Positions 11,519 to 50,765 of a stretch of 64,000 nt of DNA are shown one piece after another (within the stretch, counting starts at the first letter, position 1; each line of letters starts with the position of its first letter). Both the position numbers and the translations under genes were made by a program. Below the pieces are notes generated by a model. The model did no database searches. It worked only from the letters and a program-made list of their open reading frames with translations, and was not told the DNA's origin. The DNA is from a virus (Duplodnaviria; Caudoviricetes): the IMG/VR virus record IMGVR_UViG_3300012973_001074, positions 32,001 through 96,000 of that record. One strand, written 5' to 3'.

Positions 11519-11627
11519 GCGGGACTCCTCGTGAGCGGGGCATGGGCGCACGTCGGCGAGGGCCGTCCGCGAGCGGGCGCGGGGCCTTGGTCGTGCGCGA
11601 GGTTGAAGAGGGCAGGGGCGCGCGCGG

Positions 11628-14039: not shown

Positions 14040-15044
14040 TCACGCCGCGAACACGAAGTCCAGGTACCGCATCGCGAGCGGCTGGTAGATCTTTACTCCG
14101 CCGCAGCGAGCGTGGCAGTTGTGGAGGAATTCGAAGACCTTCTGCTCGGGCGGCATGACCTCGAACTCCTGCGGAATGATCGCCTCGAGCACGTCGGGTG
14201 TCTTCCGGTACGAGATGGCGCGAGGCACGCCTCCGACGCCCGCCTTGTTGAGGCGGTGCCATGGTGCGATTGTCGTGATGTTCGGGTTGTTGCGGCGGAA
14301 GATCGTGAGGATCGACTCGCCCGTGAGCGCCGAGAACGGCGTCTGCTGGATGTAGCTGAAGTACCGGGTCGGCAGGAGGAGGGTGTCCGCCGCCCACTGA
14401 TTGTCGGAGTAGTTGCCGACTTCGGCCGCGAGGCGCGCGAGGTCAGCGAGGATGATGTCGGGGTCGAGCGGCGTCGTCGGCGGAGCGCCGGCGGCGGTGA
14501 GCCAGGCGCCTCCGCCCATGACGCCGAGCGCGGCGACGAAGGGGTTGTTCACGAGGCCGTTGAGGCCGACGTCCGGGAGCACGCCGTTCTCGTCGGCGAG
14601 CGAGCCGAACGCGAGGACCTCGTCGATGCCGCGCTCGATGAAGTCCGCGGCCGCGCGAGCTTTCGAGTCCGACAGCTGTACGCCGAGGCGCGCCGCTTCG
14701 CGTAGTTCGTTGATGTCCCAGCCGTAGGCGGCGCCGATCGGCGTCACCTTGCCGAGCACCTCCTCGGCCGCGACGTCGACGCGCGGGATGTCGTCGCTCT
14801 TGTACGTGATGAGCTTCGCCCGGCCGACGGGCTTCATGACCTTGTAGCTGTAGGTCGAAGCGCTCGCGGCGATGTCCGTCGCCTTCGGGGCAAACGTGCG
14901 CGCGAGCGTCGGCAGGAACGCGACTTCGTACATCTTCGCGCGCAGCTGCGTGAGCTCGCGCTCGAGGAACATCGTCTCGTTCGCGTCGAAGTGCTGCACG
15001 AGCGCTGCGCGCTGCAGACGCTTGTACTGGATCTCGTCGAGCAT
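14040..15044 (-). CDS. Major capsid protein (DUF2184 / encapsulin-like HK97 fold)
   Basis: HFDANETMFLERELTQL, YGWDINELREA, GLVNNP, DTLLLP, ARCGGVKIYQPLA motifs. Confidence 0.92.
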   Translation of the reverse strand: MLDEIQYKRLQRAALVQHFDANETMFLERELTQLRAKMYEVAFLPTLARTFAPKATDIAASASTYSYKVMKPVGRAKLITYKSDDIPRVDVAAEEVLGKVTPIGAAYGWDINELREAARLGVQLSDSKARAAADFIERGIDEVLAFGSLADENGVLPDVGLNGLVNNPFVAALGVMGGGAWLTAAGAPPTTPLDPDIILADLARLAAEVGNYSDNQWAADTLLLPTRYFSYIQQTPFSALTGESILTIFRRNNPNITTIAPWHRLNKAGVGGVPRAISYRKTPDVLEAIIPQEFEVMPPEQKVFEFLHNCHARCGGVKIYQPLAMRYLDFVFAA

Positions 15045-15149
15045 CTTTCGGGTCCTTTCGTGCGGACAAAGCGCCGCCGGCCCGGTGCGCAGCGAGGCGC
15101 CCAGGCTCTGAAGTCCTTGGTGATGAGAGGGAGCGAGAGAGCGGGGAAA

Positions 15150-15195
15150 CGCGAACGCCCCGCGACTTCAGTGAGTCAGCGGGGCGTTGTTCGCG
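15150..15195 (-). terminator. Long GC hairpin followed by TTT (terminator/processing site)
   Basis: Minus strand CGCGAAC-AAC-GCCCCGC..GCGGGGC-GTTCGCG then TTT, in the decoration-capsid intergenic gap. Confidence 0.45.
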
Positions 15196-15229
15196 CGCGC
15201 GGCGATGTCCGCGCTACGTGTCGAGCGGC

Positions 15230-15718
15230 TTACGCGCCGTTGGGGCGGCCCGGGTAGTTGAGCTGCAGAACCGCGACGCCCGCGGCGCCGACGCCGCGAT
15301 AGACGCTGACGCCCGAGGGCTGCACCGCGCTTGCGTCGTCAGCGTCGTTGCGCCATCCGCCCTTCGTGCCCTCTCCTGCGAAGCGGACGAACGGAGTCGC
15401 CTGCGCGGCGATCGCCTGCTCCGTTGCGACCCAGACGCGGCCCTGCAGCATGACGGGCACGACGTCGCCCTGCTTGTGGCCCAGGCCGCTCGGACGCGTC
15501 GGGGTAGCGAGGGCGACGCCGCCCTCGCCATCGGTGACCTCCGCAGCGTCGTCGGCGAGCTCGCAGTAGCCGCCGCTCACGCGGACGTATGCACCGAAGG
15601 GAATGTCCTCCTGCGCGACGCAAGAGACCACGTCCTTCGGGCCCGTGTCGTAGATCAAGCCCGGGTAGCCGGCGCTCGGCTCCGCGGTGATCGCTGTCTG
15701 AACCACGTCGGCCATCAC
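15230..15718 (-). CDS. Capsid decoration/cement protein (gp24-like)
   Basis: AGYPGLI, IPFG, GDVVPVMLQGRVWV motifs; between protease and capsid. Confidence 0.8.
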   Translation of the reverse strand: MMADVVQTAITAEPSAGYPGLIYDTGPKDVVSCVAQEDIPFGAYVRVSGGYCELADDAAEVTDGEGGVALATPTRPSGLGHKQGDVVPVMLQGRVWVATEQAIAAQATPFVRFAGEGTKGGWRNDADDASAVQPSGVSVYRGVGAAGVAVLQLNYPGRPNGA

Positions 15719-17841
15719 TTACCTCCGTTCATCTGCTGCTGGCCGGTTTGCCAGAGCGACGCCGCCTTCTGGTCGCGATTGCGGCGCGCTCGGCTGACCG
15801 GATCGTTGTCGTTGGGGGTGTCGAACGAGTCGAGGTTGTGCACCTCGCGGACGACTGCGCGACGAACGCCGTTGATGCCGTTCGCGTCGCGGACCTGCTC
15901 GATCATCGCGTCGTAGCGGCTGCGGACGTAATCGTCCGACTTGCCCTTGTCGTCGAAGTCGGGGTTCTTCTTCCGGATCGCGTAGAGCATGACCTCGCGA
16001 TCGCTCTTCGAGTCGAGCTTCTCGAAGGGGTTCTTCTTCTTCGTGACGGTCTTCTTCTTCTTCTTGCCGTCTTCGTCGACCTCTTCCTCCTCGACGACCT
16101 CCTCCTCCTCGTCTTCGTCGGCGGAGCCGAACCAGCGGGCGACCTCGGTGAGGAGGCGGACGCGCGAGCGGACCTCGGACTGCGTGCGCTTCTTGAGCTC
16201 GTCGGCGTCCTTGTCCTTCGCCTTCTGGGCGTCGGCCTTGAACTCGTCGAGCGACTGCTTCGCCGCATCGCGAGCGCCCTCGGCCTCGTCGGCGCGCTTC
16301 TTCTCGGCGCTGAGATCTGCAGAGAGCTTGTCGATCTTCGCCTTCGCGTCGTTGCGGACCTGATCGACCTCGCGCCGGTGCATGTCGTCGAGCTTGTCGA
16401 GATGCGCCTGCGAACCGACCTCGTACTCCCTGCCGTCGATGCGGATGACCTTCATCGTTTGCTCCTGTTCTTCGTCGTGGGACACGCCCCAAGGGGGCCC
16501 CTGGTTATCGAGGCGCAGTCCCACTTCGGGTCCGGCCCGACCTCGGTTCGGCGGACAGAGCGCCGCGTGGTTGTAACGGATGTCTCTCTGGATGCAGTCG
16601 AAGCGCTCACCCTCGTAGGTGCCGCTCGTCATCTCGAGGCGGCAGCGGTAGCCGCAGGAGATCTCGGAGCGATCGCCGGTCTCGATCGCGTCGAGCGTTT
16701 CGGCGTCCTGCACGATGAGGTCGCTCGCGATGAACTTGCCGTCCTGGCGGACGCGCGCGACGTGCCCGAGAGAGACCCTGCGCCACGTCTCCGGTGTGAC
16801 CAGGCCCGTGTGGTCTTTGATGTCGATGACGGGCGCGTGCTCGAGCGTCGCGAGCGAGTCGGCCTTGAAGACCTCTTCGGGGAGCCGGAGTTCGCGACGC
16901 TGTGTGCCGTCAGGGTTCACGTACGTGAGCACGCCGGTGCGCGTGAGGCGCGCCGGGACGCGTGCGCCGCCGACCTGCGTGCGATCGACCTTGCCGAGAC
17001 GTGAGCGATCGAGGCGGAGGACGAGCTCGCCGGAGTCGAAGCGACGCTGCTCGTCGGCGTCAGAGGTCCACCGGCCGTCTTCCTCACGGGGGACGTTCAG
17101 GTGGCCTTCGCCGCTTCCGCCAGAGCCGCCGGCGCCATTGCTCCTGGCCGCGGCGGTGTTTTCGTCGGCATCGGCACGCTGCTCGAGGGCAAGCCGCCGC
17201 TTGCGAGTCTGGTGCATTGCGAGCTCCCTTGCTGCTTCCGAGACGCGCCTGCGCATCTCCTCGTCCGTGGGCGACGCCGCTTCGTCAGCGGCGTCGAGGT
17301 CGTCCTCGTCGTCCTCGTCGTCCTCGTCGGGCTGCGCTTCTGGGTTCAGGAACGGCGTGCCCGCGTTCTCATCGAGCCCGATCGGAACGAAGGAGACCTC
17401 GACGAGGCGAGCAGCGGGCGAGGCTGCGCGCGTCGTCGCGGCGGGGTTGTCGACCTCGGCCTCGTCGTCCTCGGGCTCGTCCTCGTCCTCGGCGCTGTCG
17501 GCCGAGCCTTCTGGTCCGCCGTCGTAGCCGATCGATACGGAGCGGATGACGCCGTCCTTCACGCCCTGCCAGACCTGCTCGGCGAGCGGGTTGACGGCCT
17601 CGCGCGCGAACGTGACACGCATGCGCAGGCCTTCGGCGGAGGCCTCCACGTCGTTCGCGAGACCGATCGGGAGCTCGGCGGCGTCGTGTGCCCAGAGGAT
17701 GACTGGGTTCTTGAGGAAGCGCTCGAGCTCCCATTCGGTGATCTGCACGCCGTCGACGGGCTCGGGCGACGACGCGATGATCCATACCGAGCGCGTGTAC
17801 TCGTCGACCTTCGCGACGCGCGCGAGGAGGTTCTTGGGCAT
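15715..17841 (-). CDS. Prohead protease/scaffold: HK97-type protease domain + DUF2213 domain + coiled-coil scaffold
   Basis: Start MPKNLLAR (17841). N-domain FLKNPVILWAHD..LPIG..IRSVSIGY..LVEVSFVP; second domain TRTGVLTY..ELRLPEEVF..EISCGY..QRDIRYNHAAL..RGRAG. Confidence 0.85.
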   Translation of the reverse strand: MPKNLLARVAKVDEYTRSVWIIASSPEPVDGVQITEWELERFLKNPVILWAHDAAELPIGLANDVEASAEGLRMRVTFAREAVNPLAEQVWQGVKDGVIRSVSIGYDGGPEGSADSAEDEDEPEDDEAEVDNPAATTRAASPAARLVEVSFVPIGLDENAGTPFLNPEAQPDEDDEDDEDDLDAADEAASPTDEEMRRRVSEAARELAMHQTRKRRLALEQRADADENTAAARSNGAGGSGGSGEGHLNVPREEDGRWTSDADEQRRFDSGELVLRLDRSRLGKVDRTQVGGARVPARLTRTGVLTYVNPDGTQRRELRLPEEVFKADSLATLEHAPVIDIKDHTGLVTPETWRRVSLGHVARVRQDGKFIASDLIVQDAETLDAIETGDRSEISCGYRCRLEMTSGTYEGERFDCIQRDIRYNHAALCPPNRGRAGPEVGLRLDNQGPPWGVSHDEEQEQTMKVIRIDGREYEVGSQAHLDKLDDMHRREVDQVRNDAKAKIDKLSADLSAEKKRADEAEGARDAAKQSLDEFKADAQKAKDKDADELKKRTQSEVRSRVRLLTEVARWFGSADEDEEEEVVEEEEVDEDGKKKKKTVTKKKNPFEKLDSKSDREVMLYAIRKKNPDFDDKGKSDDYVRSRYDAMIEQVRDANGINGVRRAVVREVHNLDSFDTPNDNDPVSRARRNRDQKAASLWQTGQQQMNGGK

Positions 17842-17855
17842 GCCTGACCTCGGAG

Positions 17856-19133
17856 TTAGGTGGCGGGCGGAACAAGCGGGCCGTTGGCGTAGAGGCGCAG
17901 GCTCGCGGTGACGGAGGACGCCGTCGCAGCAAGGAAGCCGCCGCCACCTGCGAAGACGTTCGCGGCCGCGCCGAGCCGGTGGCCGCCGTAGCGCCACGTT
18001 GCTCCCGCGTCGGGCGAAAAGACGATGTCTCCGAAGGCGCCCGCGGCTGCGCAGTAGAGCGCTCCGACCGTTCCGAGCGATCCGATCTCCACGCCGACTG
18101 CCCCGACTTCGGCGAAGCTCTCCCCCTGAGTGCTCGAACGGAGGACGCGAGAGACGCCGTTGCGCGACCACGCGCAGACGAACATGTCGAGCAGCTCGTC
18201 GTAGCGGAGCGAGAGCCCAGGCGGCGAGCCGCCTCCAATGAGGTGCTCGCCGCGCGGGGTCCAGGTCATCCCACCATCGTCGGAGGTCGCCCACCGGAGT
18301 GCGCCGGCGTTCGTGTTGGCGTGGAGCCAGACGAGGCGCCCCGATGCCGGATTGAGAGCGAGGAGGTTATCGGTGGAAGGCCCGCCGAACTCGGCTGGCG
18401 TAGTACGGGCGGTCCAGGCCGCAGCGTCAGGGCTCGTGAAGACCTTGGGCCCCGTCCCGCTGCCGTGAACCACGACCCATAGTGCGTGCACCGAGTCGTA
18501 ACGGACGGAGGGGCGATCCGCCACCACGCCCCCCGGCAGGACGGGTGCCGACCAGAGGTTGGTTGGGCTCCGCACATCGAGCGTGGCGGAGCCGTTGTTG
18601 GCGATAGCCACGAGCCCCGTCGGGGTGACGTCGATGTCGTGGCTGACGCGACCGCCAGCCGGAAGCGCGAGATCGGTCCACGCGCGCCCGAACGTTGCCG
18701 ACGAGCGTCCGGTGTTTGTCGCGCCGACGCCGAACCATGTGGAGAGCTCGGGCACGTACCGCAGGCGCCGATTGATCCCGTTGACCGTCACGGGCGCTCC
18801 GAAGTTGAGCGCTGGGAGGCTCCCCCAGGTGTGCATCCACTCCGCGCGCCGTGCGGCGAGCAAGGTCGTCATCTCGACCCTGTAGGCCGCGAGCTCGTCT
18901 TCGTCGTGGTTCTGGTCCTCGATGAGCGCGGAGAGGAGCGCGGCGAACTGACGGTCGAGCCAGTTGCGGTACTGGCCTCCGAACTGCCGCCCGGGACGCA
19001 TGCCTTGGCGAAGCTCGGCGAGCGACGGCTGGATCTTGACCGGGCTGTCGTCGACGTCGTCGCCGGCGGCCGCGAAGTTTATGTCCGTCGCGATCTCGAG
19101 CGCCTGCGACGAGTAGATTGGCTTGTCGCTCAT
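17856..19133 (-). CDS. Beta-propeller (BNR/Asp-box) virion-associated protein
   Basis: Asp-box-like repeats TSPDAAAW, TSDDGGMTW, FSPDAGATW; fibre-like N-terminus. Confidence 0.6.
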   Translation of the reverse strand: MSDKPIYSSQALEIATDINFAAAGDDVDDSPVKIQPSLAELRQGMRPGRQFGGQYRNWLDRQFAALLSALIEDQNHDEDELAAYRVEMTTLLAARRAEWMHTWGSLPALNFGAPVTVNGINRRLRYVPELSTWFGVGATNTGRSSATFGRAWTDLALPAGGRVSHDIDVTPTGLVAIANNGSATLDVRSPTNLWSAPVLPGGVVADRPSVRYDSVHALWVVVHGSGTGPKVFTSPDAAAWTARTTPAEFGGPSTDNLLALNPASGRLVWLHANTNAGALRWATSDDGGMTWTPRGEHLIGGGSPPGLSLRYDELLDMFVCAWSRNGVSRVLRSSTQGESFAEVGAVGVEIGSLGTVGALYCAAAGAFGDIVFSPDAGATWRYGGHRLGAAANVFAGGGGFLAATASSVTASLRLYANGPLVPPAT

Positions 19134-19144
19134 TCGTTCGCGCC

Positions 19145-19529
19145 TCAGAAGGGCGTGATCGAGACGCCGCGTGTGGCGACCTCGTCACGGATGTTCGACC
19201 AGATCGTGTGGCAGCCTCGCGCCATCGCGAGCTGACCTGGTGAGAGCGGGACCTTCGGAATCGGGCCCCAGTACAGGACCTCGCAGGGCGCGCCTGTCGC
19301 GTGGCTCGCGAGCCACTTGCGGAGCGCGCGGACGACGGCGGGCGACGCCTTCGATGATCCAGGGCCCAGGTTCTTCGAGCCAGGTGGCGACCTCGGACGA
19401 GGCCGCCGACCATGCGTATGCGCCGATGAGATCGTCCGTGTGGCGCACGCCGAGGTTGAGGCCTTTGCCGAGCTCCTCGGCGAAGGACGTCTTGCCCGTG
19501 CGCGGGCCGCCGGCGACGAGGATGCGCAT
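19145..19529 (-). pseudogene. Frameshifted small P-loop (adenylate-kinase-like) protein
   Basis: MRILVAGGPRTGKT..WIIEGVA continues as VVRALRKW in another frame; 4-bp duplication at 19337-19344. Confidence 0.7.
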
Positions 19530-19614
19530 GGTTTCGTGCGGATGCGAGCGCGTCCGCGGAGTCGTCGGGCCCCGGTGTTGTCAGTTGGCAATTCGGTCGG
19601 CTAGCGTGGATCGA

Positions 19615-20238
19615 ATGAGAATTGTCACTCTCGTCGGATTCGTCGCTCTGGTCGGTGCGTGCTCCAGGGGGAACGCCATTGGTCCCGATGACCGGCACCC
19701 GGACGGGCAGCAGAACCAGGACCCTTCGAAGGACGATCCCTCCGACCCTTCGAAGCCGACCCCGTCAGACCCTTCGAAAGCCGGGACGAGCGGTTCGCGG
19801 TTGAAGGCGCGCTACTACGAGGGCGAGGACGGCTCGAAGCAGTTCATCGGCTGGTGGGACTCGCAGCGGCAGGAAGACTGTGTGATGGTGCCAGCCAAGG
19901 ATGGGAAGCTGCGCTGCCTACCGGCGGCAAATGTCGCCATCACTGGCTACGCAGACGCGAACTGCAGCGTGCCTGTCGTGACGGTCCGCAAGGGCTGCGC
20001 TGCGCCGTCGGCGGCAATCGTTATGGAAACGTCAGGGAACGTATCCTGCAGCCTGGGATACGCGTACGCCGCGTACGGTGTAGACCCTGCGAAGTTCACC
20101 GGGACGTTGTACGGAGGCTCGCCTTCGACCTGTAAGGTCACAACGGGCGAACCGTACGCCGAAACCATGGATTTTCACCGACTCAGCTCGGAAATTCCTC
20201 CGACCTCGTTCGTAGCGGTGAACCAGACGCACGACTAG
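19615..20238 (+). CDS. Cys-rich lipoprotein (moron)
   Basis: Signal peptide with lipobox VGAC; SGSRLKARY..WWDS..C..DGKLRCLP; opposite strand to head genes. Confidence 0.75.
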   Translation: MRIVTLVGFVALVGACSRGNAIGPDDRHPDGQQNQDPSKDDPSDPSKPTPSDPSKAGTSGSRLKARYYEGEDGSKQFIGWWDSQRQEDCVMVPAKDGKLRCLPAANVAITGYADANCSVPVVTVRKGCAAPSAAIVMETSGNVSCSLGYAYAAYGVDPAKFTGTLYGGSPSTCKVTTGEPYAETMDFHRLSSEIPPTSFVAVNQTHD

Positions 20239-21137
20239 TTGAGGCCGACTTCTTCGAGCTCGGGGAGGACGGGGTAGGCGATGCATCGGCAGTTGATGGG
20301 CTCGCCCGGGTGGCCCTCTTCGGGGTGACCGTCGGCCCACGTGAAGCGCGCGCCTTCGAGGTCCTTGTGCTCGGGCCGCACGCGCTCGTCGTTGCTCGTC
20401 GTCCAGATGTACTCATCGATGCCCGCAGCGGTTTGGCGCTCGCGGGTGATGTTCGCGTTGAGCGTGAGGATCTGGTCCCGCGCGAGCGCCTCGGCGCGCG
20501 ACAGCGTGACATCGTCGAGCTGGCGCGCGATCTCCTTGGCGAGCGTCTGCGCCGTGTGGCCTCGGCCCTCGCGAAGGATCCTCTCGATCTTCGCGAGCTG
20601 GTCCTTCTGCATGCCCGTGATGCGGGCGACGTTGTCCTTCCGCCAGCCGTCGATGAGCCACTTGAGGTGGGGCTCCTTCTCGACGTTGATCCCGAGGCGG
20701 GAGAACTCGCGCTGCGAGTGCTGCACGACGCGCTTGGCTGCGCGGTTCGATGTTCGTGAGAAGCCGGGTTCGTTGAAGGCATCGAAGCCTGCGAACTCCA
20801 GGTCCTCGAGAAGCTCGTCGAGCTCCGAGTCCTCGAGCAGCTCCAGGTCGAGATCCTCGAGCTCGTCACCCGGTGCATCGAGCCGCTCGGCAGCGTCGGT
20901 CTTCGTGACGCGGCGCTCAGCGGCGGCGGCGAGTTTTGGAAAGACGACCTTCCCGACGGCTCGTGCGAAGGCGGCCGCGATGCGGCGAAGCTCCAGCACC
21001 ATCATCAGCTCGGCCCCGCGCGGCAGTTGAGGTGAGCGGGTGCGGCGGACGGCGTTGCTGGGAGGGCGTTGGGTCCTCTTCGGGAGCCTCGGTCGGCGAG
21101 GCCTTCGCGGCGGATGGCGCAGTGCTGCGCGAGCCAT
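20235..21137 (-). CDS. MuF / SPP1 gp7-like head morphogenesis protein
   Basis: RAEALARDQ, YIWTTSNDERVRPEH, HPGEPINCRC motifs. Confidence 0.92.
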   Translation of the reverse strand: MARAALRHPPRRPRRPRLPKRTQRPPSNAVRRTRSPQLPRGAELMMVLELRRIAAAFARAVGKVVFPKLAAAAERRVTKTDAAERLDAPGDELEDLDLELLEDSELDELLEDLEFAGFDAFNEPGFSRTSNRAAKRVVQHSQREFSRLGINVEKEPHLKWLIDGWRKDNVARITGMQKDQLAKIERILREGRGHTAQTLAKEIARQLDDVTLSRAEALARDQILTLNANITRERQTAAGIDEYIWTTSNDERVRPEHKDLEGARFTWADGHPEEGHPGEPINCRCIAYPVLPELEEVGLN

Positions 21138-21638
21138 TCATGCCTGCGTCGGCTCGTCGTCGTTGTTCGCTGCAGGCTCGTCGGTGTTTGCTGCAGGTTC
21201 GTCGCCTGGCGGCGCGGGGAGCGCTTCCGGCGGCGGCGGCAGAGGAGGGATCGGCGGCGGCTCGGGCTCTTCGGGCTCGCTCGGCTGTTCGGGCTGTTCG
21301 GGCTCAGGGTCGGGATGCTGGGCAAGCATCTCGTCGTCCACGCCTTCGAGCATGATCAGCGCGAGATTGTCGACCGGGTCATACGTCAGCGTGACCATGC
21401 CCGACGGTGGCTCGATCCCGCGCGCGCGCAGCACATCGACCAAGCGGGCAGCGTCGGCGAACGCGGCGGGCGAAACGAGCGTGTTCAAGAGCACGAACGG
21501 CTCGGTCGATTCGTCGCCTTCGGCGCTGCCCGTCGTGTCGAACGCGTTGCGACGCAGCCATCGCACGGTCTCACGAATGCCGGGATCGAGCGCGTCATAG
21601 TCGATCGGCGGCAATCCGCCGGGGCTTGCAGGCATCAT
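21138..21638 (-). CDS. Hypothetical phage protein with Pro/Glu-rich tail
   Basis: Start MMPASPGG; LDPGIRETVRWLRRNAFDTTGSAEG motif; abuts the MuF start. Confidence 0.6.
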   Translation of the reverse strand: MMPASPGGLPPIDYDALDPGIRETVRWLRRNAFDTTGSAEGDESTEPFVLLNTLVSPAAFADAARLVDVLRARGIEPPSGMVTLTYDPVDNLALIMLEGVDDEMLAQHPDPEPEQPEQPSEPEEPEPPPIPPLPPPPEALPAPPGDEPAANTDEPAANNDDEPTQA

Positions 21639-21765
21639 GGATCGTGCTCCCTTCGAGGTCGGCGCTGACTCCCAATTGAACGTCGATTGAATGTCGAAAA
21701 ACGAAAGAAAGTTCGATGGTTGACTGTGTCTGGCCTCGTCGGCCATCATCTGCGTCACGACGAAG

Positions 21766-22299
21766 ATGACGAGCAAGACGAAGACGAAGACGAGGCCGAA
21801 GACGAAGACGAAGGCGAAGGCGAAGGCGAAGGACCCGTTCGACGACTTCCCGGCGCGCCTCAAGGCGGCGCGAGAGCGGTGCGGGTATGGAGTGAACGAG
21901 CTAGACCGGCTCGTGGGCGTCTCCGTCGGGCAGACCTCGCGGCTCGAGCTCGGTGCGCGGCCGCGCGTGAGCATAGAGACCGTCGCGAAGTTCGCGCGCG
22001 TTCTCGATGTCACCATCGACTGGCTGTGGAACGGACCGGTCCCTTCGGGAGGAGTGAAGGTCCTGCAGCGGGGGGCTCGGAGGGAGCCGCGTTACGTGCC
22101 CTCGACCCTGCGGCGAGCCATCGGGAGGCCTCTTGAGGAAGTCGCCGAGAAGGCGGGTATCGGACTGACCAATGTGGCGCGCGTCGAGGCCGGGGAGAAC
22201 GCGACCCTCGCGGACCTCGCGGGCTTCGCCAAGGGTATCGACATGAAGCTTGAAGTCGCCTTCGTCGCAGGCGAGCGGCGCTACCGCATCGACGTGTGA
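21766..22299 (+). CDS. XRE-family regulator with two HTH domains
   Basis: RLKAARERCG..ELDRLVGVS..SRLE..IDWL and LRRAIG..EEVAEKAGIG..VARVEAG; AT-rich promoter region 21670-21730. Confidence 0.8.
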   Translation: MTSKTKTKTRPKTKTKAKAKAKDPFDDFPARLKAARERCGYGVNELDRLVGVSVGQTSRLELGARPRVSIETVAKFARVLDVTIDWLWNGPVPSGGVKVLQRGARREPRYVPSTLRRAIGRPLEEVAEKAGIGLTNVARVEAGENATLADLAGFAKGIDMKLEVAFVAGERRYRIDV

Positions 22300-22516
22300 G
22301 CCGGCTCTTGCGCGACCGCGATGGCGTTCGTAGGTTGCGACGCCTCGGAGCCCACACGCAAACTGTCCTCGGTAGGCGAGGGCTGCTTTAGGGAAGCAGA
22401 TGCGCCGGTGCGACTCCGGCCTCGCGCTCCGAGCACTCGGTCCCGCTGGCAGACGCTGGCGGGGCCGTCGCGTGTCGGGGTTGAGTCCGCCTGGAATTCG
22501 CGATGGACTTGCGGCA

Positions 22517-23167
22517 ATGGAGTCCGCCGTCATCACTGCTCTCGCTGCGATCGGCGGCGTGGTCCTTGGTGCATACCTGACACGGAAGAACGCCTTGGCC
22601 GTCGCCGAACTGTCGGCGAAGACGGCACGGGAGCAGGAGCTTGAGCGCGAACGGAGAGCGCTCGCCCGCGACCGGCTGGAGCGGCAGTTCGAAGCAAGGC
22701 TCGCCGTGCAGCGATTCGTTCTGAACAACTTGAACGGCCCTGGTTGGTCGGACCCGGGCGTCCGAGAGGAGGCAGCTCAGATTGCGGGACGGGTAGCATC
22801 CGCCTTCACTGCGCCACGCTTCGCAGCGTTCCTCTACGAGGTGCTCTTCTACGAAGTCGCGCTCCCGATCCGTCCTGGAATGTTCCAGAAGGCGCCACGA
22901 ACGATGACGGAGAGCCAGCTCTTGGCGCTCTGGAACCGAAGCGACAAGGAGATGTTGCGCGTCATCGAAGAGACGGTGCGCGTGTCCGGCTATGGCGAGC
23001 TGGAGATCCCGAAGGTTCCTTCGAAAGATGAGGCAGTCAAGGAAGCGCCGCGGACGCGAATCGCGTCCCTGTCCGCGGCGTCCGCGAGCGAGCCAACTGC
23101 AGCAGACCCGGAGGCTTCGGAGGAGGCGGCAGCGCTATCGGACTCGCGGCGCGCTCGGGGCGGCTGA
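22517..23167 (+). CDS. Membrane-anchored hypothetical protein (moron)
   Basis: Start MESAVITALAAIGGVVLGAYL, a single N-terminal TM followed by coiled coil. Confidence 0.6.
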   Translation: MESAVITALAAIGGVVLGAYLTRKNALAVAELSAKTAREQELERERRALARDRLERQFEARLAVQRFVLNNLNGPGWSDPGVREEAAQIAGRVASAFTAPRFAAFLYEVLFYEVALPIRPGMFQKAPRTMTESQLLALWNRSDKEMLRVIEETVRVSGYGELEIPKVPSKDEAVKEAPRTRIASLSAASASEPTAADPEASEEAAALSDSRRARGG

Positions 23168-23193
23168 GCCGGGCTGTCATGCTGGCGCTTCGC

Positions 23194-23214
23194 TTTCGGA
23201 CGCGGTGTCTGAAA
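23194..23214. promoter_or_regulatory. Operator copy TTTCGGAC-N5-GTCTGAAA
   Basis: Near-perfect palindrome matching the CGGAC-N5-GTCCG core repeated in the early region. Confidence 0.6.
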
Positions 23215-23306
23215 CCGAAAGCGGCCCAGAAAGCCCGTCATTTCGCCGTGTAGCGCGACCGGTCGCCGCGCGGTACACTTCTAGTGGACCCGGAAGGAGG
23301 GTCTGG

Positions 23307-23498
23307 ATGAATGCGAAGTCCCCGAAGACGGTAGAGGCACCGAAGCCAGGCAAGTCGAGCCTGGACATGTTCAACGAGGCCTACGCGAAAGCGATGGCCG
23401 AGGAAGCCGAGGAGACCGAGAACCTCCCGAAGGCCTTCACGCCGGAGGAGAGCCTGGTCGAGGTCGTGGACGACGACGACAAGCACTTCGGCGTCTAG
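23307..23498 (+). CDS. Small acidic protein (63 aa), convergent with the zeta-like kinase gene
   Basis: AAGGAGG Shine-Dalgarno at 23294-23300; stop overlaps the neighbouring stop (CTAG). Confidence 0.65.
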   Translation: MNAKSPKTVEAPKPGKSSLDMFNEAYAKAMAEEAEETENLPKAFTPEESLVEVVDDDDKHFGV

Positions 23499-25447
23499 CC
23501 GCCGCGTTTCCTCTGCAGCTTGACCTTGTGGCCGTTGGCCGCGTCGTAGACCGTGAGGTTCGGCGCGGCCGCGTGAATTTTGTCGCGGGCCTTTTCGATC
23601 TTCGCGTACGTGCCGCGGATGACGTGCTCGGGCACGTAGCGCCCTGAGCCCTCGGCGCGCGAGGCGGCGCGCCGGACGCCCTCGTCCGGGTTCAGGTCAG
23701 GGTGGTGCACGTGGACGTCGTAGCCCTTCGCTTCGAGGTGGTTCATCAGCGCGATGAACTTGTCGGCGTTGCCGCCCGTGCCGTCGATGATCACGTGGTG
23801 CCCGCGGTCGACGGCGCGGTCCCGGATCTGCTTGGCGACGGCGCTCGACTCCTCGTGCACCTGCGCGGCCGCGCCTCGGAACGTCGGGCCGGCGCTCGGG
23901 TCCTTCGGAACGCTCGCCTTGTACTCGGGGAGCTGGGACTTCACTTCGTCCGGATCGACGTGGACGAAGCGCGACGTGTCGAGACCGTGTTTCGCGAGCT
24001 TGCCGAGCACGACGCCTTTGCCGCTCGCCGGTCCGCCCATCGTGAGGATCGCGATGGGCTTCTCGCCGAGCTCGCCGGCGGTCTTCTTGCCATCGAAGGC
24101 GGGCGCGATGAGCTCGCGTTCGTGAAAGGCGGCGCGCTCGGGCGAGGGCTTGCCGCCTTCGTCCGGGTGCTTGTCGTAGTGGTCCTTCCAGGTCTCGTTG
24201 CTCTTGCCCATCAGCTGGCCGGACCACGAGCCGTCGGGGTTCTCGGTGCCGACCCAGGTGCGACCGGGCTTGAGCGGTTCGTCCTTCGCCGGGGCGGGCT
24301 GCTTCTGCGCGCTCGGCGGGACCTTGTCGTGCGTGCTCGAGAAGTCCCCCGCGGGCCCGCCGCTGCCGCCTCTACCACCGACCTTGTGCAGGCCCGGGCC
24401 GGGCGGTCCCTCGCGGTCGCTGCCGCCGCTGCCGGAGCCGATGCTCGTCCAGCGTCCCTCCTCGTCGCGCGGAACGCCTTCCCACTCGTCCGCGTCCGTG
24501 CGCTCTTCACCCGCTTCGAGACCGAATTGCGCGGCGAGCTGCCTCCACGCCCATTCGAGCTGCTTGTCGGTGAGCTTCGGGTTCTCGCGCTTCGCCTCGG
24601 CGAGCCACTGACCCTTGTACTTGCGTGGGTTCGCTGCGAGCTCGTCGAGGAACTCGTCGCGCGCACGCTTTTCCGTGTCGCTCACGCCCGGCTTCGCATC
24701 GGTGCGCGTCTTTTCGAGGCGCATCGTGACGTAGTCGGGGTGATCGAACCGGTCGTAGTCCCAGTCGGTCGCCGCGTACTCAGAGTTGAACGCATCGCGC
24801 GTCGCCTCCTTGAAGCCGACCTTCTCGTAGAGCTTGTTGAGGGTCGGCCCGTAGCACTCGACGTAGTTGACGCCGTAGTTGTCGACGACGTGACGAAGGA
24901 GCTCGACGCCGATGCCCTTCTGGCCACCCTGGTTGAAGAGCGCTGTCGCCTCGATGCGCCCGTCACCGTGGTCTTTGACCGCGACGCCGGCCTTGCCGTC
25001 GGGGCTCATGACGCAGCTCATCTTCCCCAGGTCTTCGACCCCATAGTGCGAGACGTGATGCTTGAACGGGGAGTCCTTGAACGCAGAGTCGAAGGCCGCC
25101 TTGAACTTGTCGGCCTTCTCGCGCACGGGCGAGACCGCGGCGCGCGCGCCCTCGGCGCTCTTCCAGTCGCCCGAGCTCGAGCCGCCGCCCTTGCCGCCGG
25201 GACGGTGCACACCGATGCCCGCGTCGGTCCCCGCTGAGGTGTCGCCGCCGCTGCTCGTCCAGAGGCCCTTCTCGTCGCGCGGGACCTCCTCCCAGCCTTC
25301 GGCGTCCGTGCGTTTCTGCTGCTTGTCGCGAGAGCCGGTGAGCCCTTCCTGCTCCTTCCTGGCCGCCGCGCCGGGCTCGGGCTCGTCGCCGTCGAAGACG
25401 AAGCCGCCGAGCTCGGACGAGATGAACCGGTCCGCGCGCGTCGTCAT
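23495..25447 (-). CDS. Multidomain virion-associated effector: GNAT-like acetyltransferase + zeta-toxin-like P-loop kinase
   Basis: GNAT-like ALFNQGGQKGIGVELL..LNKLYEKVGF; zeta-like ILTMGGPASGKG..VDPDEVK..LPEY..VHEESS..IIDGTG; translationally coupled to portal. Confidence 0.8.
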   Translation of the reverse strand: MTTRADRFISSELGGFVFDGDEPEPGAAARKEQEGLTGSRDKQQKRTDAEGWEEVPRDEKGLWTSSGGDTSAGTDAGIGVHRPGGKGGGSSSGDWKSAEGARAAVSPVREKADKFKAAFDSAFKDSPFKHHVSHYGVEDLGKMSCVMSPDGKAGVAVKDHGDGRIEATALFNQGGQKGIGVELLRHVVDNYGVNYVECYGPTLNKLYEKVGFKEATRDAFNSEYAATDWDYDRFDHPDYVTMRLEKTRTDAKPGVSDTEKRARDEFLDELAANPRKYKGQWLAEAKRENPKLTDKQLEWAWRQLAAQFGLEAGEERTDADEWEGVPRDEEGRWTSIGSGSGGSDREGPPGPGLHKVGGRGGSGGPAGDFSSTHDKVPPSAQKQPAPAKDEPLKPGRTWVGTENPDGSWSGQLMGKSNETWKDHYDKHPDEGGKPSPERAAFHERELIAPAFDGKKTAGELGEKPIAILTMGGPASGKGVVLGKLAKHGLDTSRFVHVDPDEVKSQLPEYKASVPKDPSAGPTFRGAAAQVHEESSAVAKQIRDRAVDRGHHVIIDGTGGNADKFIALMNHLEAKGYDVHVHHPDLNPDEGVRRAASRAEGSGRYVPEHVIRGTYAKIEKARDKIHAAAPNLTVYDAANGHKVKLQRKRGG

Positions 25448-28365
25448 TGGACCTCCTCGGCATCGATGAGAAGACGCGGCGGGCGACCGATCTCGAGGTC
25501 GACCTGCGCGTAGCTTTCGCGCTTCACCGACCTGATCCGGAACCGTGTTCCCTTCGGGAGGAGGACCTCGGCTTCGTTCTGGTACTCGGACGCGCCGGAG
25601 ACCGTGACGCCGCTCTTGTGCTGCACGCGAATCACGGCATCGAATCCGTGGGGCAGGACCGCTGCGGTGGCGCCGCGATCGAGGTCCTCCTTTTCGAGGC
25701 TCGCGAACTGGGTCGCGACGTCTCGGTGATCGGAGAAGCTCGTCATCGAGTCGAGCGTGAACGTCTGCGAGTTGAGCATCTTCTCGACGACGCGCGGCGG
25801 GACCTGCTTGAGACCGCGGTAGACGGTCCCTGGCGTTGGGGGCACGTCGCGGAAGATGCCGTTCAGGTGCTCGATCGCCTGCTGCGCGCGCTCGGTGTGG
25901 TCCGCCGCGGACGAGGCCCCGTGCAGGAACTGCTTAGCGAGCTCCTCGGGCGTGCGGACGTGCTGGTCGCCATAGCGATCGGGCTGGGAGCGATACAGCG
26001 TCCCGGCTTCGTTCAGCGTGTAGCCGGACTCGGCGATCCGCTGGTCGAGATGCGCCTGCGTCGCGCGCGTGACCTCTTCGGGATCCGCTCCCGATTCGAG
26101 CTTGCGGATCGAAGTGTCGTAGCCCTTCGTGTACTGCGAGAGCGCATCGTAGTGCTCATCGCGGAGCTTGCTCGCGACGGCCTCCGCAGCGTCGAGGTGA
26201 GCGCGCTCGTTGAACGTGTTGCGCGTGTCTTCCTCGGTTGCGGCCTGCGAGCGGATGACGCGCGCGAGGGCCGCTCTCTCGCTCGCTCGCTCTGCAATCG
26301 GAGGCGGCTCGCCATTCTTGAAGAGGTGCTCTTCGTCGAAGTCTGCGAGCGCCTTCGCCTGCTCGCGCGACAGGCCGCGTGACTCGAGGCGATCGATTCG
26401 CTCGGCGACGTCGCCTGATACGCCCTCGCTCTCGACGATGCTGCTGATGCGCGCGCTCTTGTCGCCAGACCGAGGCTCAGAGCTCGAGTCACCGTCCTTC
26501 GGCGTGAACCGGCCCCCATCGGGCTCGCCAGCCGGCACGCGTTCGACGTTCGCCTCGTCCCAGTCGTCGGTGCGGACCGCGTCGTCGAGGAAGCGGATCT
26601 CGGTCTTGCCGCCGTGTCCGTGGATCTCGCGGACCTCGTCGAGCGAGTCGAAGAGCGTCGTCGAGCGGTGCTTCGTGAGCCAGCGCATGGCGACGGTGCC
26701 GTCCTCGAAGACGGCTCCGTGAGCGACGACGCCGGTACCGGAGACGCCGGTCTCGTCCTCGATGCGGTAGAGCTCGAAGAGGCGCGGACCGCTCGTCGCG
26801 TCCGTGCGCACGCGCGCGCGCTCGTAGTCGTCTTGGGTCGGCTTCGGCTTCTGCGCGACGCCGGGCGGAAGCTGCGGGGGACCTCCCTGCTGGGGGCCTC
26901 CCTGCTGCGGGGGACCTCCCTGCGGGGGCGGACCTCCCATGCCCGGAGGGGCGCCCGGTCCGCCCATCTCCGTCGGGTCGGGCGGGTTCTCCATTTGCTC
27001 GAGGTCGGCCTCGAGCACGGCCTGGCGCGCCTTGATGGCGTCGTCGGAGAGCCGGACCTCGTCCTCGAAGCCGCCGGCGATGCCGAAGCGCGCGATGGCG
27101 ACCTCCTCGGGCAGCAGGACCTGGGCCTGGATGTACGTCGAGTCCCGCTGCGCGATCGCGCTCTGGCGCTGCGCCTGCACGAGCGGTGTCTCGGTCCAGA
27201 GCGGGGTGAACTTGACCGTGAGCGACTTTGGCCGCGTGCGCGTCGGCGACGCCTTCGACTGCAGCCAGATGACGAGCAGGCGCCGGATCTTCGGCGCGAG
27301 CATCGTCGTCTGCTCGGCGCGGATGCGGTCGTAGAACCAGCGGAAGTCGCTCTCGCCCGTGGCGTTCATGCCGGCGGGCGACTGGCCCATCAGGATGGTG
27401 ACGGGGATCTGCACCGCCGCGGCGAGGCGGAGCATGAACTTTTCGAGCGTCGCGGGGATCTCGCTGAACGAGACGGAGTGCCGCGTGAACTCCTCCTTCG
27501 CGTCAGCATCGACGACGATGGCGCGCATCACCGAGCGGTAGAGCTCGATGATCTGCAGGCGCGCCTGGAGCTTCGCCTGCTCGTTGGCGCCGATCATCTC
27601 GGCGAGACCGGTCATCTTGAAGATGGCCTGGTTGCCGTCGGTGAGCAGCGTCTCGACGGCCGCCCATCCGGTGTTGAACGAGCGCAGCACGTTGTACGCG
27701 CGCTGCAGGACGGACATGTCCCAGCCGAAGAGCTGCTGCCGCTCGCGGATGCCCGTCGATGCTCCGCGGAAGAGGATGAGCCGCGACTCGTGGACAAGCA
27801 TCGTCGGCGACGACTTGGCCCCGGCCGCGGTGACGGCGTACGTCTTGGGCGTGCCGAACTTCGGGCCCGGTTCCTCGTAGAAGTCGACGGGCCAGAGAAG
27901 TCGGCGATCGAGCGGGTAGAGCCACTCTACGTCGTTCGCGCGCGCGGGCTTGAGCGGCTTCCAGGCCTCCTGGCCGTCGTCGGCACCGATGAGGACGGCG
28001 CCGCCGCCGTAGCAGCGGCCCCACTTGGACCCTTCTTGGAAGTTGCCGCGGACGTCGAGCGCGTCGAACTTCTCCTGGATGACCTCGTCGAGCTTCGGGT
28101 CGCCGGTCTCGATCGAGAACGGCTCGCGAAGCATCTCCTGCGGGACGACGTCGACCATGCGCGCCGCCATGTCGTCTGCGTGATAGAGCGCGGAGAGCTC
28201 GACATCCTCGAGCATCCGGTTCGGTAGGACGTAGCCGTAGGTCGTCTTGTCGCGCGCGGTGCCGAAGCCGGTGACCTCGTTGATCCACGCGTCGAAGCGC
28301 GACGTAGCGCGTGCGCGGAAGGCGCCGAGCGCCTCGCGCATCTTGATCGACGCGGAGTTCAGCAT
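25444..28365 (-). CDS. Portal protein (DUF1073/HI1409-like) fused to a C-terminal ADP-ribosyltransferase
   Basis: Portal: VHESRL, IPVTILMGQSPAGMNATGESDFRWFYDRI. ART: YT, VYRG, TSFS, NEAEVLLPKGTRF (R-S-ExE). Confidence 0.88.
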   Translation of the reverse strand: MLNSASIKMREALGAFRARATSRFDAWINEVTGFGTARDKTTYGYVLPNRMLEDVELSALYHADDMAARMVDVVPQEMLREPFSIETGDPKLDEVIQEKFDALDVRGNFQEGSKWGRCYGGGAVLIGADDGQEAWKPLKPARANDVEWLYPLDRRLLWPVDFYEEPGPKFGTPKTYAVTAAGAKSSPTMLVHESRLILFRGASTGIRERQQLFGWDMSVLQRAYNVLRSFNTGWAAVETLLTDGNQAIFKMTGLAEMIGANEQAKLQARLQIIELYRSVMRAIVVDADAKEEFTRHSVSFSEIPATLEKFMLRLAAAVQIPVTILMGQSPAGMNATGESDFRWFYDRIRAEQTTMLAPKIRRLLVIWLQSKASPTRTRPKSLTVKFTPLWTETPLVQAQRQSAIAQRDSTYIQAQVLLPEEVAIARFGIAGGFEDEVRLSDDAIKARQAVLEADLEQMENPPDPTEMGGPGAPPGMGGPPPQGGPPQQGGPQQGGPPQLPPGVAQKPKPTQDDYERARVRTDATSGPRLFELYRIEDETGVSGTGVVAHGAVFEDGTVAMRWLTKHRSTTLFDSLDEVREIHGHGGKTEIRFLDDAVRTDDWDEANVERVPAGEPDGGRFTPKDGDSSSEPRSGDKSARISSIVESEGVSGDVAERIDRLESRGLSREQAKALADFDEEHLFKNGEPPPIAERASERAALARVIRSQAATEEDTRNTFNERAHLDAAEAVASKLRDEHYDALSQYTKGYDTSIRKLESGADPEEVTRATQAHLDQRIAESGYTLNEAGTLYRSQPDRYGDQHVRTPEELAKQFLHGASSAADHTERAQQAIEHLNGIFRDVPPTPGTVYRGLKQVPPRVVEKMLNSQTFTLDSMTSFSDHRDVATQFASLEKEDLDRGATAAVLPHGFDAVIRVQHKSGVTVSGASEYQNEAEVLLPKGTRFRIRSVKRESYAQVDLEIGRPPRLLIDAEEVQ

Positions 28366-28442: not shown

Positions 28443-28754
28443 CTATTTCGGCGCGTTCAGCGGGCGGCGGCGCATCCGCTCGATGCGTCGCCGCGTCTGT
28501 TCGAGTCCCCGCGAGATAGCCCTCCGCCGATCGTCAGGGCTGAGAACGCGAAAGGAGGCAGCACCGGTCGGCGGAGGAGTCTCAGAGATGCGCCGCGTCG
28601 GCGGTGGCTCGTCGTCGTCGCGGCAGCCGACGAGAGCGCGGAAGCCTGGGGTGCACGGGTCGCGCGCGTCGCACGAGAGCGCGAAGCCTGCGCCGCTTTC
28701 CGGCCCGCACGTGCAGTCCTCGCCCATGTCGCAAGTGAGCGCGTGGACCTTCAC
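28443..28754 (-). CDS. Small Cys-rich hypothetical protein
   Basis: GTG start overlapping the TerL stop (GTGA); HALTCDMGEDCTC. Confidence 0.45.
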   Translation of the reverse strand: MKVHALTCDMGEDCTCGPESGAGFALSCDARDPCTPGFRALVGCRDDDEPPPTRRISETPPPTGAASFRVLSPDDRRRAISRGLEQTRRRIERMRRRPLNAPK

Positions 28755-30139: not shown

Positions 30140-30695
30140 CCGGTGGTCCCTGCTGCTCGGGCGGCGGCGGCGGCGGTTGCTCGAGCCACGCGGGATCGAT
30201 GGGCGCCGGCGGGACCGTGACCTCGCCGACGGCGGGGCCTCGCGCGCCGTGCTCGCCGAAGAGCTCCCGCACGAGGCGGGCGGCCTCGACGACCGTGGGC
30301 GCGTCGCCCATGAGCGGGCCGCCGTTTGCGCCGGTGAGCTGCTGCTGTTTCGGCGCGTCGAGCCCGAGGTACGCGGAGATCCGCGTCTGGATGGCGAGCA
30401 TCCGGTCGATGGCGGCGAGCTCGCCACGCTGAGCGCGCTGGTAGAGACCGCCGCGCAGGACCGCTTCGAGCCTCGCGACCTCGATCCAGCGCTGCTCGTC
30501 GACCGTCTCGTTCGCCTCCTGCCGGAGTCGCTCGACTGCCTTGCGGAACACCTTGAAGGGACCGGACGCGTTCGCGTAGCCGAGCTCCTTCGCGATCATC
30601 GACCACGTGAGCCCGGCGCGCCGGCGCTGGATGATCGACTCTTCGAGCTCGAGGTTCGCGACCTCGCCCGCGTCACGCTTCGACGTGTTGCCCAT
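30075..30695 (-). CDS. terS: Terminase small subunit-like HTH protein
   Basis: RRAGLTWSMIAKELGY HTH, YLGLDAPKQQQLTGANGGP; overlaps the TerL start. Confidence 0.75.
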   Translation of the reverse strand: MGNTSKRDAGEVANLELEESIIQRRRAGLTWSMIAKELGYANASGPFKVFRKAVERLRQEANETVDEQRWIEVARLEAVLRGGLYQRAQRGELAAIDRMLAIQTRISAYLGLDAPKQQQLTGANGGPLMGDAPTVVEAARLVRELFGEHGARGPAVGEVTVPPAPIDPAWLEQPPPPPPEQQGPPDEASESSGAGAGEVPASAPRE

Positions 30696-50682: not shown

Positions 50683-50765
50683 CGCGGCCTCCGCACGAGA
50701 GACGAGACAACGCCCATCACCGATTGGTGATCGTGCGCCATGGGGCGACGGAGGAAAGGTGTATC

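Follow-up and report, generated by a model that had tools for sequence, protein, structure and literature searches.

Domains and junctions of the head proteins

We analyzed a window of 64,000 nucleotides from a tailed virus (Caudoviricetes; positions 32,001 to 96,000 of IMG/VR record IMGVR_UViG_3300012973_001074), and specifically a group of head genes whose proteins join structural domains to putative effector enzymes. Two short sequence elements recur at the junctions between these domains: a boundary motif, R-x-D-[A/G], and a prefix of about 20 residues that we call the tag. The contig is 115.5 kb long and has a G+C content of 67%. All genes of the head region are on the minus strand, as are all of their features described below, and coordinates refer to the window. 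The genes are, in order, the large terminase (28751-30142), the portal fusion, a protein of 650 amino acids (aa), a MuF-like protein, a 425-aa protein (17856-19133), a protease-scaffold protein, and the major capsid protein, with tail genes downstream. In this region, a large tailed phage (or a prophage) encodes its head-assembly module.

The portal fusion (25444..28365) has 973 aa and comprises the portal core, a Pro/Gly linker, a site, an Acb5-like domain, a second site, a long form of the tag, a helical region, and a C-terminal ADP-ribosyltransferase (ART). The core matches Phage_portal_3 from Pfam (aa 56-409, E = 8.5e-72), and there is a PHROG portal match as well. Near the N terminus, RFDA (aa 23-26; 28288..28299) lies within a conserved motif, R-h-D-[S/G/A]-W-V-N. 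A site of this type is found in the first 60 aa of 94 of the 120 portal homologues, at 17-45 residues from the N terminus. For the portal of Pa193, the first 93 residues were seen neither by cryo-electron microscopy nor by liquid chromatography-mass spectrometry (PMC11456595).

The small domain after the linker (aa 524-597, 74 residues; 26575..26796) was overlooked by the initial annotation of this DNA, which had identified the sites on either side of it. It belongs to the Acb5 family of proteins that counteract the cyclic-oligonucleotide-based antiphage signaling system (anti-CBASS). The domain matches phrog_7499 (E = 8e-27), and PF26761 ("Acb5") is in the precomputed annotation of the identical protein P0027 and of about 40 portal homologues. 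A sequence search of the PDB with this domain found no solved relative. Acb5 cleaves 3'3'-cGAMP and was modelled as a homotetramer, and residues R10, W38, and H61 of Acb5A are needed for activity (bioRxiv 10.1101/2025.07.12.664507). The portal-borne domain has a conserved Arg, a conserved Trp, and an H-G-H-G-G region; if numbering starts just behind the upstream site, Arg, Trp, and His fall at 12, 40, and 62, a spacing comparable to that in Acb5A. The hosts of the tblastn hits for this domain (Streptomyces, 128; Bacillus, 19; Haloarcula, 10; Mycobacterium, 4) agree with the host spread that was reported for Acb5 (bioRxiv 10.1101/2025.07.12.664507).

The Acb5-like domain lies between two candidate cut sites, RTDA (aa 520-523; 26797..26808) and RTDD (aa 598-601; 26563..26574). 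Among the 40 portal homologues with an Acb5-like core, 32 have a site no more than 25 aa upstream of it, and in 26 of those 32 homologues the site is 9-11 residues before the core. On the other side, 22 of the 40 proteins end after the domain; of the other 18, whose chains go on, 15 have another site no more than 35 residues away. Two Acb5 homologues of Streptomyces phages, neither of them fused to a portal, lack the motif, which is therefore not part of the Acb5 fold.

RTDD is followed directly by the long form of the tag (P/E-R-V-P-A-G...G-G-x-F; aa 602-621; 26503..26562). This variant recurs in 9 proteins of the sets that we collected, and the cassette of RTDDW, long tag, and ART recurs in P0013 (from a syntenic locus, L001, described below) and in P0285. 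The ART itself, of the R-S-E clade (about aa 780-973; 25447..26028), matches ADPrib_exo_Tox just above the threshold (E = 1.8e-5; 24.6 bits versus a cut-off of 23.4 bits) and matches PHROGs of Alt-like ARTs. R, S-x-S, and E-x-E motifs are present in the translation, and the initial assignment of this module holds.

The 650-aa protein (23495..25447) consists of a leader, a site and tag, a GNAT-fold domain, a site, a small helical domain, another site and tag, a Gly/Pro linker, and a zeta-toxin-like P-loop kinase. RADR is at aa 4, and the 45-aa leader ends at RTDA (aa 46-49; 25301..25312), which is followed by tag 1 (aa 52-65; 25253..25294). The GNAT domain (about aa 108-245; 24713..25126) has a second RTDA directly after it, with no tag (aa 248-251; 24695..24706). 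The third RTDA (aa 316-319; 24491..24502) is before tag 2 (aa 322-335; 24443..24484). Both of the enzymes that had been proposed for this protein were borne out. The kinase (23534..24067) matches Zeta_toxin (PF06414; aa 461-638, E = 7e-27), and its translation includes a Walker A loop, G-x-x-x-x-G-K-G. The GNAT domain has no sequence match in Pfam, and its assignment comes from the predicted fold: the AlphaFold2 model of aa 100-250 has a pLDDT of 89, and Foldseek (probability 1.0) gave 216 matches in the PDB at E ≤ 1e-3, the top matches listed being all acetyltransferases with TM scores of about 0.6.

The ends of these modules also fall at the natural termini of homologous proteins. Stand-alone homologues of the zeta kinase begin with M-A-E-F-D-E-..., or Met-Ala and then the acidic and aromatic start of the tag, which corresponds to the residue after R-T-D in the window. 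Similarly, homologues of the GNAT domain end 2-7 residues past the last strand, exactly at the position of the window's R-T-D-A.

The MuF-like head protein (20235..21137; Phage_Mu_F, E = 8.5e-21) has KTDA at aa 79 (20892-20903) and RLDA at aa 85 (20874-20885), both in its N-terminal part. A site of the form R/K/H-x-D-[A/D] is present in the same region of 5 of 6 related MuF proteins. The major capsid protein (PF09950; 14040..15044) has HFDA at aa 18. In four relatives, [N/H]-F-D-A-N-E-T is conserved as part of a longer N-terminal arm, with no Arg or Lys at P3.

The protease-scaffold protein (15715..17841) has 708 aa, counting from the Met of M-P-K-N, which is its true start, rather than from an upstream GTG. 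It begins with a domain like the HK97-type prohead proteases of family S78 (aa 1-165; 17347..17841), in which His52 and Ser103 (of S-x-G-Y) are invariant. An acidic linker, RADA (aa 222-225; 17167..17178), a tag (aa 247-260; 17062..17103), and RFDS (aa 267-270; 17032..17043) separate this domain from DUF2213 (aa 288-442; 16516..16980; E = 2.6e-34), and RLDR is at aa 276. RLDN (aa 443-446; 16504..16515) is at the end of DUF2213, where R-L-D is invariant in five relatives, and a coiled-coil scaffold part follows.

RFDS is the window's version of a conserved junction site. At this position of the alignment, 88 of 120 homologues have [R/K/H/N]-x-D-[A/G/S], and for the junction between the two protease-like domains the majority consensus of 51 homologues is RTDA. 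Sites are enriched in these junctions (29 observed versus 12.5 expected), and in the alignment the site has further conserved positions, both where DUF2213 ends and within the scaffold part. The tag is present in just 4 of the 28 junctions examined.

The initial annotation had taken the protein with DUF2213 to be the phage's protease. The fold of the DUF2213 domain agrees with this, but the S78-like domain in front of it had been missed. The AlphaFold2 model of DUF2213 (pLDDT 93) aligns by VIA-align to gp21 of phage T4 with Z = 11.1 and a root-mean-square deviation of 2.6 Å over 129 residues. The herpesvirus proteases follow, with Z from 9.2 to 6.3 (for example, 9.2 for varicella-zoster virus and 7.3 for human cytomegalovirus), and the next unrelated folds are at Z ≤ 5.8. 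Foldseek likewise ranked herpesvirus proteases and gp21 first, weakly (E = 2.6e-3). A His (in D-H-T-G), a Ser (in S-x-G-Y), and another His (in Y-N-H) are invariant or nearly so in 51 homologues.

For the S78-like domain, the match to Peptidase_S78 is just under the threshold (E = 5e-4; 20.7 bits versus a cut-off of 21 bits), while PHROG protease families match at E = 1e-12 to 2e-13. PF04586 is in the precomputed annotation of many homologues, and the tandem of S78 and DUF2213 is common among the 120 homologues of the protease-scaffold protein, one of which is from a Myxococcaceae metagenome-assembled genome. Whether the two domains are related to each other was not apparent from a comparison of shallow profiles (hhalign probability 0.2, not significant), in which the Ser motif was the only stretch that aligned. 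Because DUF2213 has a gp21-like fold and conserved residues in its model and alignment, and the S78-like domain has matches to protease families and an invariant His and Ser, we consider both to be candidate proteases. We had considered that DUF2213 might be scaffold only, with the S78-like domain as the protease, and we dropped this once the fold search placed DUF2213 beside gp21. (DUF2213 is now named in Pfam after gp24 of Pa193. The one experimental study of the family that we found describes gp24 as a putative scaffolding protein, of which just a C-terminal helix-turn-helix was seen in the virion [PMC11456595].) S78 and DUF2213 are the only peptidase families that we found in the head proteins, and we found no embedded zincin-like metallopeptidase in them.

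The boundary motif and the tag in related proteins

Every R-x-D site and all four tags that had been listed for the head module are indeed present. R-x-D in general is not enriched, though: the five head proteins contain 22, versus 19.8 expected from shuffles (P = 0.33), which is the level of chance, so we dropped the idea that any R-x-D is a site. What remains as a junction motif is the narrower R-x-D-[A/G] (also with S, or with F or Y before a tag), and RADR, RLDR, and the HFDA of the capsid protein are unsupported as boundaries. The form RTD[A/D] occurs five times, versus 0.19 times in shuffles that preserve composition, and all five are in the portal extension or the 650-aa protein.

We then compared classes of proteins across six related loci. 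In the portal, cargo, MuF, and protease-scaffold proteins, there are 47 instances of R-x-D-[A/G], which is threefold more than the 15.1 expected (z = 8.9), and 17 instances of RTD[A/G], versus 0.8 expected. The 116 other proteins of these loci are depleted in R-x-D-[A/G] (12 versus 24.5 expected) and have one RTD[A/G] (1.3 expected). In the C-terminal extensions of 83 portal homologues, R-x-D-[A/G] occurs 87 times, versus 29.5 expected (z = 10.5). The controls in the same extensions, R/K-x-E-[A/G] and the motif in reverse, show no enrichment, and R/K-x-D with any other residue behind it is rarer than expected. The preferences at the site are Arg (71%) or Lys at P3; Leu, Thr, Ala, or Phe at P2; Asp at P1; and Ala (74%) or Gly at P1'. 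Across the comparisons in relatives, the z-scores span 8.9-17.7, and they overstate the independence of the sites, since the counts include homologous sites that related sequences inherited. The variety of the modules behind the site argues for repeated placement of the motif: in relatives, R-x-D-[A/G] directly precedes Acb5-like domains, P-loop NTPases, HNH and NUDIX domains, and tags, which are unrelated to each other. In these comparisons, the motif behaves as the site of a maturation protease should, with enrichment confined to head-internal proteins.

The syntenic locus L001 carries the same set of cargo, differently arranged. There, the ART is on the kinase protein, with the same long-form tag; the GNAT domain is encoded by a separate gene with its own leader; and the portal bears another P-loop enzyme. 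R-T-D plus a tag is still in front of every module. Cassettes of site, tag, and cargo have clearly been shuffled between carriers. Between the portal gene and the cargo gene of L001 there is also an open reading frame of 66 aa (L001:2791-2991), made up for the most part of R-[F/T]-D-[Y/F/A] repeats along with fragments that resemble the tag, and this may be a decayed cassette junction.

As for the tags, they precede modules, and the fourth of them, on the portal, is the longer recurrent variant. The tag of the protease-scaffold protein had been placed after a cleavage site, and it turns out to lie before the conserved junction site rather than after it. When all six frames of the 115.5-kb contig were scanned with a strict pattern for the tag, only the three short-form sites matched. 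We built a profile from eleven copies of the tag (from the window, L001, and another locus, L002) and searched 1.84 billion proteins with it. At E ≤ 1e-3, the profile matched 518 cluster representatives; the longest protein has 3849 aa, and a single protein has as many as 12 copies. From 641 copies we derived a consensus, which consists of a hydrophobic pair, K-[Y/F]-S-P-D-Q-P-R-D-E-x-G-R-[W/F]-T-S, and a run of Gly. The median spacing between tags is 227 residues. The first copy is within 40 residues of the N terminus in 61 of 149 proteins, and the last copy is within 40 residues of the C terminus in just 4 of 149. This bias towards the N terminus, and the rarity of the tag near the C terminus, indicate that the tag is a prefix of modules and not a symmetric linker.

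The domains behind the tags are the repertoire of the polyvalent proteins: ARTs, zeta kinases, ART-PolyVal, MuF, PI3/4-kinase-like, DRAT, InPase, and 2H domains, as well as ParB-like and HNH nucleases, SprT, Tpt1, and Acb1. The initial annotation had treated the tag as part of a system with R-x-D. Instead, the tag is a general prefix of polyvalent-protein modules, and elsewhere it occurs without R-x-D. In the general consensus, there is a Lys at the place of the Asp of R-T-D, so R-x-D has been added in this clade, directly before the tag. We examined the context of three tagged proteins, and they were in head modules of three other types (one with an S78 neighbour, one Mu-like, and one HK97-like).

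Two of the tagged proteins are giant. P0157 (3849 aa, 12 tags) is a polyvalent protein with an Acb1 anti-CBASS nuclease domain and a GNAT domain, and P0147 (3010 aa, 10 tags) has a 2H phosphoesterase, MuF, and an ART. Enzymes that act against signaling seem to be a recurrent packaged cargo.

Proposed processing and delivery of the effectors

We propose that cleavage by the prohead protease, after the Asp of R-x-D-[A/G], frees prefixed effectors inside the head. Given the distribution of the motif and the positions of the module ends, this is probably correct. Host-directed enzymes would be loaded into the capsid as parts of two larger carriers. One would be the portal, whose extension is predicted to carry a cyclic-dinucleotide nuclease of the Acb5 family and the ADP-ribosyltransferase; the other would be the 650-aa polyprotein, with its 45-aa leader, GNAT domain, small helical domain, and zeta-like kinase. 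R-x-D followed by Ala or Gly would be the cleavage motif of the phage's own prohead protease (the 708-aa protein). That protein carries the motif at its domain junction, where DUF2213 ends, and at several places in the scaffold part, and the protease would therefore free itself and degrade the scaffold, as is usual for proteases of this kind. Cleavage in the prohead would release the modules, which would leave with the DNA at infection. Release might be needed for Acb5, for example: it works as a tetramer, so it could not assemble while tied to the 12-mer portal.

After cleavage, the prefix of about 20 residues (an aromatic and acidic stretch, P-R-D-x-x-G-R-[W/F], and a Gly-rich linker) would be the new N terminus of the cargo. 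Our best guess is that it is not a cut site but a short linear motif for a step that packaged proteins share, either retention in the prohead or threading out through the portal and tail. More speculatively, the prefix might be a portable address label that is used across tailed phages, with any family of portal or capsid, to keep enzymes in the prohead, to lead them out through the tail, or both; together with a protease motif that is specific to each phage, this would make a grammar of cut site, label, and cargo. We consider this extension less likely than not. If it were true, anti-defence enzymes such as Acb5, Acb1, and 2H would already be in the head and would reach the host before genes are expressed, and fusion behind the label would suffice to have any protein packaged and injected.

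Several observations weigh against the proposal, besides the shared ancestry of many of the counted sites. The protein that would do the cutting has two candidate proteases, and its conserved R-x-D-G sequences at aa 367 and 469 are probably in folded parts and may be structural. Its tag is upstream of the conserved junction site. The capsid protein has no R/K-x-D-[A/G] site at all, and its N/H-F-D-A may or may not be used as a cut site. Tags are found in head modules with different families of portal, capsid, and protease, so the partner of the prefix cannot be any one family of portal or capsid. Some MuF-GNAT fusions have no tag. Nor do head modules encode all tagged cargo: a zeta kinase that stands alone and bears a tag (L002:10001-11293) is on a 119.8-kb contig among many small genes, with no recognisable head gene within 10 kb. 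Finally, some virion polyproteins are packaged uncut, among them the virion RNA polymerase (vRNAP) of phage N4 (PMC5512222).

The N4 polymerase leads to the first alternative, in which R-x-D-[A/G] and the tag are linker or domain-capping features, there is no proteolysis, and the portal fusion and the polyprotein remain whole in the virion and work as multi-enzyme proteins once injected. Polyvalent proteins such as N4 vRNAP are packaged unprocessed (PMC5512222), and some of the conserved sites are in folded regions. But a cap that belonged to one fold would not be found before seven or more folds that are unrelated, and the motif is absent from the Acb5 homologues that are not fused to a portal, where a cap would be expected. 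The Acb5 homotetramer fits poorly with lasting attachment to a dodecameric portal, and copies of the motif are frequent in the scaffold part, which has to exit the head. We consider this explanation to be unlikely.

The tag itself could be the processing element, recognised or cut either by prohead proteases generally or by a host protease after injection, with R-x-D as a clade-specific flank. Many phages have the tag at the starts of modules, its distribution is much wider than that of R-x-D, and the Lys of the general consensus, at the position of the Asp, fits with this idea. However, R-x-D-[A/G] occurs without a tag before Acb5, NUDIX, HNH, and P-loop domains and after the GNAT domain; tags at the extreme N terminus of stand-alone proteins need no cleavage; and the tag adjoins different protease families. 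This seems quite improbable to us.

Alternatively, both motifs might be mainly junction sequences for the recombination of cassettes, like the pre-toxin motifs of polymorphic toxins, with no role in the protein. The cassettes are clearly shuffled, and tags 1 and 2 of the 650-aa protein are 81% identical in DNA. The protease's tag, by contrast, shares just 30 of 63 bases with tag 2, and only 1 of 9 identical residues has the same codon. The near absence of shared codons between this tag and the others indicates selection at the protein level, and purifying selection on the residues of the tag is already suggested. Also, the tag is kept at the protein level across 518 clusters of unrelated composition, and the four residues of R-x-D-A are too short for homologous recombination. 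We would be surprised if recombination were the explanation.

Chance, combined with the Arg- and Asp-rich composition of a high-GC phage, would account for generic R-x-D, which is at expectation in the window, but it is effectively refuted for R-x-D-[A/G] and the tag by the five RTD[A/D] (0.19 expected), the z-scores of 8.9-17.7 in relatives, and the depletion of the motif in non-head proteins of the same loci.

Pre-packaged effectors act before phage gene expression, and a head with an anti-CBASS nuclease, an ART, a kinase, and an acetyltransferase inside would disarm the host at entry. With a defined cleavage motif and a common prefix, one could predict mature products directly from the sequence, tests of what portal and MuF fusions do would become possible, and foreign proteins could be loaded into phage capsids by a simple design rule. 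The proposal also touches on CBASS, which prohead proteases can trigger (PMC12991175); the cargo that such a protease would release here includes a CBASS antagonist.

Relation to known systems and other features of the contig

The closest parallel is phage T4, whose internal proteins IPI-III and Alt are effectors, including an ART, that enter the prohead, are processed by a protease with the assemblin fold (gp21) at a three-residue motif with an acidic P1, and are injected with the DNA. T4's gp21 cuts after the Glu in I/L-x-E (PMC12991175), whereas the motif in the window is R-x-D with a small P1' residue. The carriers differ as well: the window's cargo is on the portal or a polyprotein, while T4 uses a 10-residue N-terminal targeting peptide. 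And T4's capsid targeting sequence is before the cut and is removed, while the window's conserved peptide follows the proposed cut and would remain attached to the cargo. In the 650-aa protein, R-T-D ends the leader, and we found no L-x-E grammar in the window, so this is not a member of the T4 type, though it would work alike.

The leader has another feature that touches on targeting. The 45-aa leader (window 25313-25447) and the 70-aa leader of the GNAT protein in L001 (L001:6198-6410) share R-A-D near the start and G-F-x-F-D-G-x-E-P, and the latter motif is nowhere else in the loci or proteins that we collected. This shared motif could be the true head-targeting element of leader-borne cargo.

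The window's proteins also resemble the polyvalent proteins of Iyer, Burroughs, Anand, de Souza, and Aravind (2017; PMC5512222) and the fusions of effectors to portal, MuF, or protease (PMC9503650), which are multi-enzyme proteins of head modules that are predicted to be packaged and injected. With GNAT and a zeta kinase in the 650-aa protein, Acb5 and ART on the portal, and these genes between the terminase and the capsid, the window fits that description. The repertoire in common includes ART, zeta kinase, GNAT, NUDIX, 2H, HNH, ParB, and InPase, and fusions to portal and MuF were known. Those papers propose processing by embedded zincin metallopeptidases, of which we found none in the window's head proteins. 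For the R-x-D-[A/G] boundary motif, we found no mention in the main text of PMC5512222 or by term search of PMC9503650. For the P-R-D-x-x-G-R-[W/F] prefix, we found no description in the literature searched, which included the main text of PMC5512222 and, by term, PMC9503650 and papers on MuF toxins and NAD-ADPr. The tag is thus widespread among the modules of phage polyvalent proteins and apparently undescribed. More broadly, packaged effectors that are processed by a protease are a known theme, and the form in the window has two sequence elements that are apparently undescribed. Its cargo also includes an anti-CBASS enzyme. The Acb5 proteins in bioRxiv 10.1101/2025.07.12.664507 are small and stand alone, and that report mentions no fusion to a portal and no packaging in the virion; the Acb5-like domain of the window is fused to the portal.

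In phiKZ (gp175) and SPN3US (gp245), one prohead protease trims many internal or ejection proteins, with an acidic P1, as we propose here. Cleavage in phiKZ-like phages is at S/A/G-x-E, and propeptides are removed from multi-domain proteins (PMC10052503, PMC7411985). The window differs in its motif, which has Asp where theirs and that of T4 have Glu, in a much smaller head module, and in having cargo fused to the portal.

Two other comparisons are of a more general kind. The first is with assemblies in which a protease is fused to the scaffold, with a release site at the junction and another site near the C terminus, as for pUL26 of herpesviruses and the P2 gpO / lambda C type. Relative to the herpesvirus assemblin, the window has two tandem protease-like domains, and its site has Asp followed by Ala or Gly, where the herpesvirus site has Ala followed by Ser. 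The second is with the cargo-loading peptides of encapsulins, which are short conserved peptides, joined by a flexible linker to diverse enzymes inside a shell with the HK97 fold. They are usually C-terminal and bind a defined pocket of the shell. This likeness is an analogy only: the phage prefix is N-terminal to its modules and occurs with several capsid families.

Further searches for relatives gave little. By tblastn against cultured phages, we found distant relatives only (T1-like phages, S-CBS4, and PSS2), and no tagged protein could be linked to published virion proteomics. A search for loci based on MuF gave six viral contigs, all of which were too distant and free of tags.

Among the tail genes of the window are a tape-measure-like minor tail protein (7307-9007) and a DUF3383 protein similar to E217 gp31 (10208-11551), both on the minus strand. 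These are consistent with a structural module like that of the Pbunavirus group (Pa193 and E217). There is no tRNA in the 64-kb window, and no integrase or housekeeping gene among the 20 large open reading frames that we scanned on the 115.5-kb contig. Besides tail genes, those 20 include DnaB (L018:10788-12338), a GH5 cellulase (L017:12151-13776), and a Type ISP restriction-modification enzyme (Mrr-like nuclease, helicase, coupler, and methylase; L018:2-3649, which is 96002-99649 of the contig). A 625-aa open reading frame (window 37897-39774, minus strand) has a weak match to PP2C phosphatases (E = 5e-5, just below the cut-off). On the plus strand, a DUF5131 protein (window 50724-52631) is split by a LAGLIDADG-type domain, which is probably an intein or a homing-endonuclease insertion.

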